This document shows, piece by piece, positions 28,396-64,000 of a stretch of 64,000 nucleotides of DNA (the stretch's first letter is position 1; every line of letters starts with the position of its first letter). The position numbers and the translations under genes were made by a program. A model generated the notes under the pieces. That model had not been told where the DNA came from and made no database searches. It worked only from the letters and a program-made list of their open reading frames with translations. Source of the DNA: Prorocentrum cordatum (Eukaryota); contig CAUYUJ010000149.1 in NCBI GenBank assembly GCA_963575745.1, forward strand, positions 1 through 64,000, read 5' to 3'.

Positions 28396-29078
28396 GCAGG
28401 TCTGCTGGGATGGCCGAGAGAGTTGTTGTAGCATGTAGCACATATAGTCAACGTGAGAGGTACTAACTCATACGATAATATGTTGCGATTAACAACTTAA
28501 CACTATACATATACATACTTAGTAGCCAACTTAATAAGTTAAATAAGTCGAGGTGTTTGTTCGGGCGTCCTGTTTTTGCCCTGGCGCCACGATGTTTGCT
28601 TGGCGTCGCCTGCTGGTCGGACCTGCGTTTTTTTGCTCTGTGCTTGTTTTCTGGGCGCGTTTGCTTGATGAAGACGCTGCGCGTTGTTCAGGTGCCACCT
28701 AAAAAAAACAACTTATCCTCCTCTTCCTCCTCCTCCTCCTCCCCCTCCCCCCCGCCGCCCCCCCTGCTCCTCATCATAACCCCTCTTCGGCGGATTACCC
28801 GCCTTCCCTCCTCTCTTTTGCATGCGCTGGCGGATCAACCGTTTTCTCTTTCGGCGGATCAACCGCTTTCTCTTTCATTTCTCCCATCTTCTCGGCGGGT
28901 CAAACGCCTCATTCTGCGGATCAGCCGCGCCCCCCTTTCTTTGCGGATAAACCGCACGCCCCCCCTCTCTCGAGTCCGCGGATCAGCCGCATTCCTTTCT
29001 CCCTCGGCGGATCACTCGCCTCCTTCCTCTTCTCCGCCCCGAGCGCCCGCAGCCTTTTTATCGAAGACGCCTACGGCG

Positions 29079-30988
29079 AATCACCGCCGCCCCCTGCCCT
29101 TTCGGAAGCGCCGATGCGGCCGACTGCTGTGGCCAGAGGTCTGCCAAGTTATTGGGCCATATGTTCCCCGAATCGGTCTTTACAGCCTTCGGGGAACACG
29201 TGGGGGAGGACGGGGAGGAGAGGAGAGATAGGAAGGGGGGGAATGGAGGAGGAGGTCTCTTGAGTGCCTTGTTGGCTACTCTGGGTTTATATTGGGCCAC
29301 ATGTGCGGTCTTGGAAGCATCTTGGGGGCCTCTTTGGATGCCTTGCGGCCTTCCTGTTCTGCCTGACGCCGTCTGGGCTGGGTTGGGGGCCTCTCTGTGG
29401 CCTCATTTGGGTTTATCGTGGCCGTAGACGCCAGCGTGGCCATCTTGGGCCGTCTTGGGTGCATCTTGGAGCCATCTTACCCGTCTTGGAGGCCATTTTG
29501 GCCGTCTTGGAGGCATCTTGGAGGCCATCTTGGGCCATCTTGGCCGTCTTGGAGGCCATCTTGGGCGTCTTGGACGCCTCTTGGGCCGCCTTGAGGCCTT
29601 CTTGGGGGCCTCTTGGGCCGTCATGGGGCCATCTTGGAGGCCTCTTGGGTGCTGTTGGGGCGATGTTGGGGACCTCTTGGGCCGTCTTGGGCTGTCGGAG
29701 AGCTGAAAAGAATAACATGCCAAAATCCTTCAAAAACCTGAGGAAAATCAATGATTTTAACCTATTCGGGCCTTCCTGGAGGGCGTCTTGGAGGGCTCTT
29801 GGGCCGTCTTGGAAGCCTTTTGCGGGCCTTTTGGGCCGTCTTACACCATCTTGAGGCCATCTTGGGCCGTCTTGGGTGCATCTTGGAGCCACCTTACCCG
29901 TCTGGGAGGCCATCTTGGCCGTCTTGGAGGCATCTTGGAGGCCATCTTGGGCCATCTTGGCCGTCTTGGAGGCCATCTTGGGCGTCTTGGAGGCCTCTTG
30001 GGCCGTCTTGAGGCCCTCTTGGGGCCTTCTTGGGGGCCTCTTGGGCCGTCATGGGGCCATCTTGGAGGCCTCTTGGGTGCTGTTGGGGCGATGTTGGGGA
30101 CCTCATGGGCCGTCTGGGGCCGTCGGAGAGCTGAAAAGAAGAACATGCCAAAATCCTTCAAAAACCTGAGGAAAATCAATGATTTTAACCTATTCGGGCC
30201 TTCCTGGAGGGCGTCTTGGAGGGCTCTTGGGCCGTCTTGGAGGCCTTTTGCGGGCCTTTTGGGCCGTCTTAGACCATCTTGAGGCCATCTTGGACCGTCT
30301 TGGGTGCATCTTGGAGCCATCTTACCCGTGGGAGGCATCTTGGAGGCCATCTTGGGCCATCTTGGCCGTCTTGGAGGCCATCTTGGGCGTCTTGGAGGCC
30401 TCTTGGGCCGTCTTGAGGCCCTCTTGGGGCCTTCTTGGGGGCCTCTTGGGCCGTCATGGGGCCATCTTGGAGGCCTCTTGGGTGCTGTTGGGGCGATGTT
30501 GGGGACCTCTTGGGCCGTCTTGGGCCGTCGGAGAGCTGAAAAGAAGAACATGCCAAAATCCTTCAAAAACCTATAGAAAATCAATGATTTTAACCTATTC
30601 GGGCCTTCCTGGAGGGCGTCTTGGAGGGCTCTTGGGCCGTCTTGGAAGCCTTTTGCGGGCCTTTTGGGCCGTCTTAGACCATCTTGAGGCCATCTTGGGC
30701 CGTCTTGGGTGCATCTTGGAGCCATCTTACCCGTCTTGGAGGCCATCTTGGCCGTCTTGGAGGCATCTTGGAGGCCATCTTGGGCCATCTTGGCCGTCTT
30801 GGAGGCCATCTTGGGCCAAGTTGGGGCAACAAAGGCATTGACAGACGGATTTTGGGAAAATTACGGGTGGCCGGCGGGACGGGCCGAAGCCCACTGGGGA
30901 GTTCTTCTAGAAAAAGAACCAAAACCAAAACCTGAATCGTCCAGCGCGCCGTGCACCCCTGTGGCAAGACCACAGGGGGCGGCGGATT
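29079..30988. mobile_element. Non-autonomous TIR element built of GGCCATCTTGG/GGCCGTCTTGG repeats with three ~400-430-bp internal units
   Basis: AATCACCGCCGCCCCCTG (29079-29096) versus CAGGGGGCGGCGGATT (30973-30988). The unit GAGAGCTGAAAAGAA.AACATGCCAAAATCC occurs at about 29698, 30126 and 30531. Confidence 0.65.
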
Positions 30989-31055
30989 GCAGCCTTGTCG
31001 GCCCGAGCTGCCGCGGGGCCGCGGCGCGTCTTGCTGCTGCACTGCCTGCCCGACA

Positions 31056-62063: not shown

Positions 62064-62674
62064 CTCGCGCTTGGGAAGCGCGCCGACGGCCCTCGAGCCC
62101 CCCCGCGAGAGGCGAGTGCGACTACGGATATGCCCTGAGCCAATGATACGGAAGCGAACGGATGAGCATTTCTCTGCACCGCGCCCCTCCTGGAGGGGAT
62201 CCTTCAGTCCCGCGGCTCCGCCCCCTCAGCCGCGTGACCTTCCGCCCCCCCTCCGCTCCGCCCTCCGCCCACCACCGCCGTCTGTCCAACGCCTGCCCTG
62301 CTCTCCTGCAATGCCTCCATTCGCGCCGCGGCCACTGATGTCCGACGCCCCCCCCCCCCCCCCCCCCCCCCCCCCCCCCCCCCCCCCCCCCCCCCCCCCC
62401 CCCCCCCGCCCCACCCGCACCCCGCCCTGCGGCGAGGGGGTTTGTTTCGAACCGGGGCGGGCAGAGAAACGCGCGGCCTCTCACGAGGGGGACCTCTGCA
62501 AGAAAGAATAGTGGCGCGTCATGTTTTTTCCATGCGTCGACGCGCAGGCTGCAATGAACGCAATAGCTGTGTCGGGCGAGGCAGTACTTCCCACCCTGCA
62601 TATGGAAGTAACTATGGATATGTATCGAGGCCCACAGATCAATCGAGGAACTTCTTGAAGCGCTTGAGCAACAG

Positions 62675-63560
62675 CTAAACTCCCTCGCACGCGTGCCCCA
62701 TCGCGCTGCGGGCGGCAACGGCCTCGCACTTCAGCTTCACGCACATATCCGCATCCTTGCCGACAGAAGAAACGCTGACAATTTTGGCAATGAGGATCTC
62801 CATGTTCGCCTCGTGGCCATCCGCATTGACCACGCACTTCTTGCATTCAACCGCCCAGTTCTGGAACTGAGCGCGGCCCGCTTGATCCTGATCTCCAGCC
62901 TGCGCGAGCAACTGGTTCTTCGTGTGTTTCAACTCCTCGAGCTGCTTCTAATACTTGCAGAGCGTTGATGAAGGTGCGCGAATCCTTCTCCACAAGCTTC
63001 TCATCGCCCATGTTGCGCACCAGGAAGTACCATTGCTTTCAAAGAGGCCTCTTCTTTTCATCTTCCATTACAGGCTATTCTTCTGCGGTGCCATGCTCAG
63101 CGCTATTCTCCTCCCACCAGTCCTGCACGAAGGCCACGGCCTCCTCGATGTTCTCAAAATCTCCGATGCTGAAGTCATTCGATGCCGGCGCCTGCGATGC
63201 GTTCTGGTACCCCCTCTTGCCAGACCAGGCGCGCACCTCCTCGTTCGTGCAAGTCTCTTCGAAGGTGGACATCCAATCTAGCGTCTTCTCCTTATCGCTT
63301 GCGAAGCTCTGCAAGCAGCGCCTCCGATCGCTTGGGTCTTTCATCCCGTTCCACATGGCCTGCGCTGCTTTGGCTGTCCCTGCAGCGGACGTAGTTTTGC
63401 CGTCGGCGCCCTTCCTCTCGGACTGGCAGCGGAGCCGCGCCCTCATTTTGTCGGCCTCGACCTTGTCGAGCCCGCTGCCCTTCGGAGCAGCCTTCGCTTT
63501 CTGTGCCGCTGCGGGGCCCGGCTTGCCATCGGTCTTCTTCTTCAGGGCCACGCTGCACAC
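62675..63560 (-). pseudogene. Cargo ORF of element 3 (unknown, basic N-terminus), frameshifted
   Basis: ALKKKTDGKPG...DKMRARLRCQ...LDWMSTFEE...GYQNASQ, continuing to LKHTKNQLLAQ...ECKKCVVNADGHEANMEILIAK. Co-oriented and directly upstream of transposase 3. Confidence 0.5.
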
Positions 63561-64000
63561 TGGCGCGATGAGAGCGCCCATCAGGAGCAGAGGAGCGACG
63601 CCGGCAGGGCCGCCCACGGCTGCCGCGAGCGCAAACACACCCAGCACTTGCACTCACAAAAGCTTCGGCAAGCCCGATCGCCTCGCAGCCTCAACACCTG
63701 CTAACGAATTGCAAGTTCATCGTCGCCGTCGTCGGCGTCGCCGAGGCATCCCCTCAAAGAGGGGTTCGCTTCTCTCCCCCCCAAGGGGTTCGACGCCCTC
63801 GCGGTCGTCTCCTTTCCCTCCCAGAAGGGTCGTTTCATCGCTCATGGCGGCGCGGGCTCCTCCACAAAGGGGCAACGCGTTCCCTCAAAAAGGAATCCAT
63901 CTCCTCGCACTCGTTCTCGCAAGGGCCCCCCCCCCTCGGCAAGGGGCCCGCCATGGCTGCGCCGCGCCCCGCCCCCCTTCAGGAATGAGCACCTGCCCCC

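Follow-up and report, generated by a model that had tools for sequence, protein, structure and literature searches.

A cluster of three probable, decayed large DNA transposons in Prorocentrum cordatum and a transposase family with a predicted RAG1-like fold

Results

Transposase-like genes and element ends

The window analysed here is the whole stretch of 64,000 nucleotides that forms positions 1 to 64,000 (forward strand) of contig CAUYUJ010000149.1 of the dinoflagellate Prorocentrum cordatum (NCBI GenBank assembly GCA_963575745.1). It carries three transposase-like genes, named T1, T2 and T3 in this work. T1 and T2 lie in blocks bordered by inverted repeats, which are referred to as elements 1 and 2. 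The original prediction, made from the sequence of the window, had described all three genes and had proposed that they belong to giant, multi-gene transposons sharing a set of accessory genes. All three were recovered at the expected places, T1 and T2 with a family hidden Markov model (HMM) and T3 through its match to proteins P0155-P0157. The genes, the element ends and the satellite that flanks them are as follows.

34997-36969, + strand: T1, pseudogene of a full-length DDE transposase with a predicted RAG1 fold (family HMM)
54815-58516, - strand: T2, transposase of the same family as T1 (family HMM)
59988-62078, - strand: T3, decayed transposase-like gene of a second family, its N-terminal half (61185-62078) identified by the match to P0155-P0157
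28408-28431, + strand: element 1, left inverted-repeat arm, GGATGGCCGAGAGAGTTGTTGTAG; extended to 28405 by Smith-Waterman alignment
37474-37497, - strand: element 1, right inverted-repeat arm
28432-28650: element 1, left AT-rich subterminal region with short ACTTA/AGTTA motifs
37240-37473: element 1, right AT-rich subterminal region
37926-37942, + strand: element 2, first inverted-repeat arm, GGCCTGCTTTGCAGAAT
59753-59769, - strand: element 2, second inverted-repeat arm
59450-59752: element 2, AT-rich subterminal region with 4-7 copies of a AAGTTATGAAA-type repeat
27996-28404: C-rich satellite with a unit of ~16 bp, GGACCCCCCCCGGTCC, left flank of element 1 (Tandem Repeats Finder and sequence)
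37501-37925: the same C-rich satellite, between elements 1 and 2
59770-59850: the same C-rich satellite, between elements 2 and 3

The family HMM (profile A1, built from an alignment of 79 homologues) matched T1 in four frame-shifted pieces that together cover profile positions 1-664 (34823-36966, +). The frame changes three times, near 35200, at 35600-35640 and at 36490-36517, and since there is no sequence between the pieces, the breaks correspond to small indels and not to introns. The D, D, CxxC, DxxH, HxxxH and E motifs are all kept. T2 was likewise matched in four pieces (profile positions 3-243, 258-418 and 503-645; 54818-58516, -) and is interrupted at 56880-57532 and 55420-56371, the latter segment containing a (TC)n run. 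It has lost profile positions 418-503, which hold the H(3)H region, and retains D, D, CxxC, DxMH and E. T1 and T2 are 26-29% identical over the pieces that can be aligned. Direct tblastx comparison of the T1, T2 and T3 regions returned proline-rich low complexity only, so the likeness lies at the level of profile and motifs.

T3 was not matched by the T1/T2 family HMM at E<=10. It is 55-70% identical to P0155-P0157 over 61185-62078, with frameshifts. These proteins align with P0158, a Symbiodinium protein of 597 aa, in a 'W..DG' segment with the first D, a 'GDW/GDY' segment with the second D and a C(2)C pair. The claim that the three genes share one motif order therefore stood for T1 and T2, which form one family, and in part for T3: its family has the first D, second D and C(2)C in the same order, and it is a different family in which T3 itself reads G at the second catalytic D (KGGW; homologues KGDW). 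The C-terminal half of T3 was assigned to the transposase by eye only. Profile-profile comparison (hhalign) of the T1/T2 family with P0158 gave a probability of 44% and an E-value of 2.3e-4 in the 'K.KA.E ... PK.HY..H' region, P0158 being the sole route of this remote link. Judged from these alignments, T3 would represent a second, more distant family that is remotely related to that of T1 and T2. Coding-like frames, including a K/A-rich stretch, lie upstream of T3 on the same strand (62600-63650, -) and could be accessory genes of a third element. All three copies in the window are predicted to be dead: T1 is frameshifted, T2 is interrupted and lacks a segment, and T3 has lost its second D.

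The proposed AT-rich ends with inverted repeats were confirmed for both blocks, more weakly for the second. The arms of element 1 are 24 bp long, match at 22/24 positions and span 9,090 bp. Their pattern, GGATGGCCGAG[AG/GA]AGTTGTTGTAG, has only two matches in the window at <=3 mismatches; none of 100 shuffles gave two matches, and the alignment score was reached by 0/2000 shuffles of the junction windows. The arms of element 2 (17 bp, 15/17 matching) span 21,844 bp and both lie exactly at junctions between satellite and AT-rich sequence. Here, too, the score was reached by 0/2000 junction-window shuffles, and on this sequence evidence the repeat probably marks real ends. With blastn-short, inverted repeats were found neither around T3 nor close to T1. 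The far end of the T3 block may lie beyond the window.

Transposase family and its predicted fold

The longest open piece of T1 (35477-36526, +) was used as the query against a library of 1.84 billion proteins. It retrieved 1624 representative proteins (clusters at 50% identity) at E<=1e-3, typically ~660 aa long and mostly ~600-700 aa. The nearest named member, P0001 from Prorocentrum cordatum, is 79% identical. Its public (UniRef) label, 'RNA-dependent RNA polymerase', is unsupported, as the fold of the family is RAG1-like and not that of a polymerase. T1 still encodes H(3)H and E at 36386-36570, in a stretch that is missing from P0001 (597 aa).

Nine residues are invariant or conserved in at least 90% of the members: D116, D214, C233, C237, D336, H339, H493, H497 and E514. 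C233 is present in 79/79 sequences and C237 in 78/79, with two residues between them in 75/79; H493 (78/79) and H497 (77/79) are separated by three residues. The intact member P0002 was modelled with AlphaFold2 from alignment A1, with a pLDDT of 94.8 and a pTM of 0.93. In the model, D116 ends strand 109-118, D214 follows directly after strand 206-213 and E514 lies in helix 511-524. A Foldseek search of the PDB with this model gave 44 matches at E<=0.001, with RAG1 chains and BbRAGL among the matches listed. RAG1 had a best E-value of 4.4e-8 over ~610 columns (TM ~0.5), followed by BbRAGL (7.4e-5) and HzTransib (2.5e-3). With VIA-align, an independent all-against-all structure comparison, residues 1-555 of the model were superposed onto the RAG1 core (residues 459-1004) with a Z of 17.5 (464 aligned, rmsd 5.2), and the scores for BbRAGL, ISCth4, the P element and HzTransib were 16.1, 12.3, 10.4 and 10.1, respectively. 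As modelled, the T1/T2 family has the RNase H fold of a DDE transposase and the zinc modules known from RAG1 and Transib (ZnC2/ZnH2), which bears out the DDE fold expected in the original prediction.

The remaining part of the model, residues 555-665, matches BAH domains (DNMT1, MET1, TNRC18 and ORC1; Z 9.0-9.4, 92-103 aligned, rmsd 2.5-3.8), and the C-terminal domain is accordingly described as BAH-like in the predicted structure. It corresponds to 36403-36966 in T1. BAH is a chromatin-reader fold, and it is seen here in a group of organisms, the dinoflagellates, that have little nucleosomal chromatin.

The predicted matches to Transposase_21 and Plavaka did not materialize. Neither Transposase_21 (PF02992) nor Plavaka (PF18759) was detected in any of the 77 family members or the four T3-related proteins, even at E<=0.1 to 10, with the proviso that the HMMER filters discard most matches above ~0.1, so that a very weak likeness could escape. 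In a protein language-model space, the named neighbours of P0004 were Plavaka (0.93) and Transposase_21 (0.92), and those of P0158 were Plavaka and RAG1; these neighbours are treated as leads only.

Metagenome loci and the accessory genes linked to the transposase

A metagenome search with the single T1 ORF found nothing. A degenerate pattern for the KGAxGxxPCxxCxN motif of the family was used to fetch 120 metagenome loci. The transposase was present in 103 of them, ~20 with an uninterrupted ORF of 620-750 aa, and, judged by their reading frames, intact relatives of the window transposases exist elsewhere. The T3 family was absent from the 120 loci. Once the transposase was masked, conserved co-oriented ORFs emerged as common to the flanking sequence of the longer loci; they were named AccA (14 loci), AccB (10 loci) and AccC (4 loci). 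Together they occur in 18 loci, including 15 of the 22 that keep at least 1.5 kb of upstream sequence. All lie on the transposase strand, and all are upstream of it except the AccB of locus L046. The transposases linked to them are only 21-40% identical (median 27%). The other flanking ORFs yielded no additional neighbour family common to the loci. As a proxy for a genome-wide test, this linkage agrees with the expected co-occurrence of cargo and transposase, and the relatives carrying the same gene kit appear, from the recovered loci, to be widespread in environmental DNA.

Two independent loci provide a proxy for shared boundaries, which had also been anticipated. In L070 the segment from AccA to the transposase is enclosed by 35-bp inverted repeats matching at 35/35 positions (7974-8008 and 18207-18241) and spanning 10.27 kb. 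In L030 the same segment lies within 35-bp repeats matching at 33/35 positions (1375-1409 and 11902-11936) that span 10.56 kb. None of the inverted-repeat sequences recurred in another locus. AGTTA/AACTT was observed 45 times versus 6.8 expected in the first 250 bp inward from the eight ends of elements 1 and 2, L070 and L030. All eight of these segments are AT-rich, and each word occurs 1-11 times per end. This enrichment points to a common subterminal motif that may serve as a binding site. The arms start with CGGAG (L070), CTATAG (L030), CTGGGA/GGATGG (element 1) and GGCC (element 2), and the actual ends of the elements may be situated beyond the repeats that can be recognised.

The AccA model shows a confident helical N-terminal domain of ~240 residues followed by a disordered linker; AccA further has a K/A-rich basic tail and, at the C-terminus, a GCxxCR...C...CW motif. 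The model gave no Foldseek match at E<=0.001, and its best VIA score (Z 7.4) was to a generic helical hairpin. AccB starts with CxxCG...GRxHG..F.C..C. No recognised Pfam family was assigned to AccA, AccB or AccC; their roles may lie in binding the DNA of the subterminal repeats, in import into the nucleus or in regulation. One AccB (L068:492-2432, +) differs from the others by an N-terminal RING finger (PF00097, 26.2 bits, cut-off 21). Downstream of a family transposase, L051:7884-10535 (+) encodes an ORF of 884 aa with RNase H at the Pfam cut-off and reverse transcriptase and endonuclease below it, which resembles a LINE-like retroelement situated next to the DNA transposon. Neither the window nor any of the 120 loci contained the dinoflagellate spliced-leader motif, and the loci thus give no sign of being leader-bearing transcripts or retroposed copies.

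Accessory genes in the window

Four ORFs of elements 1 and 2 were considered in the light of these families.

31307-32499, + strand: AccA of element 1 (ORF-A), with a helical domain, a Q-rich linker and a K/A-rich basic tail (AccA HMM)
40298-42283, - strand: AccA of element 2 (ORF-A), its C-terminal tail degenerated into low complexity (AccA HMM)
33097-34362, + strand: ORF-Y, 421 aa, with coding-like codon bias, between AccA and T1
50134-51159, - strand: ORF of 341 aa with a CxxC...CxxC...FYR pattern resembling the AccB N-terminus, the match not being significant

The original prediction that ORF-A occurs in both elements held at the profile level. The AccA of element 1 is split over two frames, matched by the AccA HMM at 30911-31531 (E 1.4e-11) and 31348-32499 (E 1.8e-8), and that of element 2 was matched at 40301-42283 (-) with an E-value of 3.5e-19 over profile positions 4-346 of 391. 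Pairwise blastp and tblastx missed the likeness of the two copies, which the profile alone detects. AccA is the sole accessory gene shown to be common to blocks 1 and 2. The element 1 copy is upstream of T1 and separated from it by a single ORF, the order also seen in the metagenome loci. That intervening ORF-Y had no detectable relative, and profile comparison with AccB gave nothing. The 341-aa ORF was compared with the AccB N-terminus by hhalign (E 0.016, probability 2.8%) and was not matched by the AccB HMM. Among the other window ORFs of at least 60 aa (656 tested), none had a relative in the metagenome loci, and the cross-block likeness of window ORFs seen by blastp and tblastx consisted only of low complexity, tandem repeats and a dispersed GGCCATCTTGG-type repeat.

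Repeats and sequence setting

The window is GC-rich overall (0.39-0.68 in 2-kb bins) and contains many satellites and microsatellites. Rfam and tRNA scans of the window gave no match, and no Pfam domain reached the cut-off among 134 window ORFs. Low-GC patches were located at 28376-28650, 37176-37525, 37926-38225, 59451-59750 and 59826-60025, and each of them adjoins a stretch of the C-rich satellite. Pieces of this one 16-bp satellite part all three elements, which points either to a favoured target or to several insertions into the same array; we infer that the satellite may be preferred.

One further feature lies inside element 1.

29438-30816: tandem array of a 405-bp unit, 3.3 copies, with GGCCATCTTGG-type sub-repeats

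Related copies of the GGCCATCTTGG-type repeat were found at 14640-15545, 20228-20464 and 51312-52044, which marks it as dispersed and not as cargo specific to the elements. It is open in all frames (PRGPQDGP / LGPSWGHLG peptides) and mimics ORFs common to the blocks, but is present outside them as well. The longest inverted-repeat calls came from a 1.1-kb (ACATAT)n microsatellite and a complementary (TGTA)n run, at 26508-27610 and 40066-40262. The pair 26513-26663 and 40068-40218 was rejected as a candidate for element ends, because these repeats are simple-sequence artefacts formed by complementary microsatellites. The left part of the window also holds a unit of ~865 bp repeated in tandem about three times (11738-14336, 97-98% identity) and a 5-kb complex satellite (21238-26575) of ~79-bp units combining ACGGGACACC and ATCGATCTCACT sub-repeats. 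Within element 2, a GC-rich low-complexity segment is duplicated (45395-46082 and 46183-46870, 92% identical).

Discussion

The window is best explained, with fairly good confidence, by three adjacent, decayed large cut-and-paste DNA transposons that were inserted in, or are bordered by, one C-rich satellite, with elements 1 (~9.1 kb) and 2 (~21.8 kb) belonging to one family that carries an accessory kit. This explanation draws together the fold, the catalytic and zinc-binding residues, the inverted repeats, the gene linkage and the subterminal motif described above. The core of the original prediction, a family of giant multi-gene transposons with a conserved kit, is supported, with the corrections that T3 belongs to a separate family and that only AccA is common to blocks 1 and 2. 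By analogy with En/Spm, in which TnpA binds subterminal short repeats, the transposase or an accessory protein would bind the AT-rich AGTTA-type arrays. The transposase would also bind the terminal inverted repeats, and the whole unit would be excised and reinserted through DDE chemistry.

A number of observations count against this explanation. No Pfam family was matched at cut-off by any of the 77 family members, and a search of all PDB sequences with profile A1 returned neither RAG1 nor Transib chains at E<=10, so that homology to RAG1 is argued from fold and motifs. No consistent target-site duplication was seen: L030 has AAA/AAA, element 1 has TG/TG only if its repeat starts at 28405, and L070 has none. 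None of the four end pairs starts with CACTA, CACAATG or CA...TG. A significant inverted repeat was absent from 7 of the 9 long loci tested, and none was found within 4 kb of the gene in 19 of 20 loci, where the ends may lie off the contig. The count of 18 kit-bearing loci includes some from which the Acc HMMs were built, and the independent matches are only those in L003, L013, L022 and L043. In the window, AccB and AccC were not found by HMM or hhalign, and the order transposase ... AccA in element 2 differs from that of element 1 and of the loci. The element 2 repeat score was also reached by 19/2000 random real windows (~1%), which makes this repeat the weaker of the two and its status as element ends probable, not certain.

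The unity of element 2 is therefore uncertain. It is conceivable, if less likely, that this block is a mosaic of decayed elements, satellites and host DNA with a fortuitous 17-bp repeat, and that only element 1 is bounded. Besides the imperfect match of the repeat and its score among random windows, such a mosaic would account for the failure of blastn-short to find a repeat at the element 2 ends, for the interruption of T2 itself, for the duplicated GC-rich low-complexity blocks and microsatellite in the interior, and for the position of AccA 12.5 kb downstream of T2, when it is upstream in 14/14 AccA-bearing loci. A single element 2 is favoured by the location of both arms exactly at a satellite/AT-rich junction, in the same layout as in element 1, by the result of the junction-window shuffles and by the AGTTA-type subterminal motif at both inner ends.

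A second alternative, which we consider improbable, is that the blocks are ordinary unidirectional dinoflagellate gene arrays with domesticated transposase genes, the AT-rich dips and short repeats being array or domain boundaries. Dinoflagellate genomes are normally built of co-oriented gene blocks with boundaries of low GC, so that co-orientation taken by itself is no proof, and the lack of a target-site duplication and of inverted repeats at most loci would also suit such arrays. Against them stand the perfect or near-perfect 35-bp inverted repeats that enclose the kit in two unrelated loci, the size and diversity of the family (1624 clusters), the occurrence of pseudogenised copies beside intact ones, the linkage kept at 21-40% transposase identity and the conserved catalytic residues. 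An endogenous viral element, with the transposase-like genes as viral replication genes, is very improbable: it is suggested by the UniRef name of P0001 and is opposed by the RAG1-like fold, by 0 matches in BFVD at E<=0.001, by the lack of relatives in phage records or viral contigs and by the absence of any Pfam polymerase, capsid or other viral domain at cut-off in the 134 window ORFs, in which the sole viral-named match was ODV-E18 (21.5 bits versus a cut-off of 28.1).

Beyond the transposon explanation of the window, we tentatively propose, with less than even confidence, that the T1/T2 family represents an undescribed, superfamily-level RAG1/Transib-CACTA lineage, abundant and still active in dinoflagellates and marine protists, that moves as units of at least 10 kb with a three- or four-gene kit (AccA, AccB and AccC, none of a known fold or family) and a fused BAH domain. 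Novelty seems to lie in the lineage itself, in its BAH-like domain and in the gene kit. A full-text literature search, with Repbase and subscription journals outside its scope, found no paper tying Transib, RAG1, EnSpm, CACTA or Plavaka to such a dinoflagellate element. Few genomes are as large or as poorly understood as those of dinoflagellates, and to our knowledge their DNA transposons are almost unannotated. A transposase with a predicted RAG1 fold and a linked kit offers an annotation handle on a sizeable fraction of the 'hypothetical' genes of dinoflagellates and marine metagenomes. RAG1 is the enzyme that assembles vertebrate antibody genes, and the family adds to the known breadth of the clade that gave rise to the V(D)J recombinase. 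If the proposal is true, such elements could contribute to the huge, repeat-rich dinoflagellate genomes and would provide a new outgroup for the origin of RAG. Intact candidates for biochemistry are available, namely a transposase fused to a BAH-like domain and small zinc-binding or basic proteins as possible readers of the subterminal repeats.

Comparison with known systems

The CMCT clade (CACTA/Mirage/Chapaev/Transib, also including Plavaka, ESTA and Lanisha) is defined by the motif order D..D..C(2)C..H(3-4)H..E, and most of its members have CA..TG termini and 2-5 bp target-site duplications (PMC12730594). The T1/T2 family has the same motif order, with a DDE triad on a predicted RNase H-like fold and the C(2)C and H(3)H pairs, and at the protein level it belongs with this clade. 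It departs from the clade as described there in the detected ends of the four elements, which read without CA...TG, in its BAH-like domain and in accessory proteins without a recognised family. Plavaka and Transposase_21 are the nearest named language-model clusters (leads only), whereas no Pfam match to either was obtained in the 77 members. The likeness to En/Spm lies in the AT-rich subterminal arrays of short repeats, which are also a feature of En/Spm, and in the presence of more than one gene per element (TnpA and TnpD in En/Spm); in contrast to CACTA/En-Spm elements, no end pair of the four reads CACTA. In the ends and duplications detected, the elements fit no named superfamily.

RAG1, ProtoRAG and Transib are the closest systems by structure, and the differences from them are evident at several levels. 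The family has no sequence-level match to RAG1 chains, and it has an extra C-terminal BAH-like domain. The elements show neither CACAATG-like termini nor a 5-bp duplication, are longer (9-22 kb versus ~3-4 kb for Transib) and carry several accessory genes that are not RAG2-like. The similarities concern the transposase itself. The length of ~660 aa resembles that of Transib proteins, and the D214-C233 (19 residues) and H497-E514 (17 residues) spacings are like those of RAG1. RAG1/ProtoRAG/Transib also provide the best structural match over the whole catalytic core of the model, from the DDBD to the CTD.

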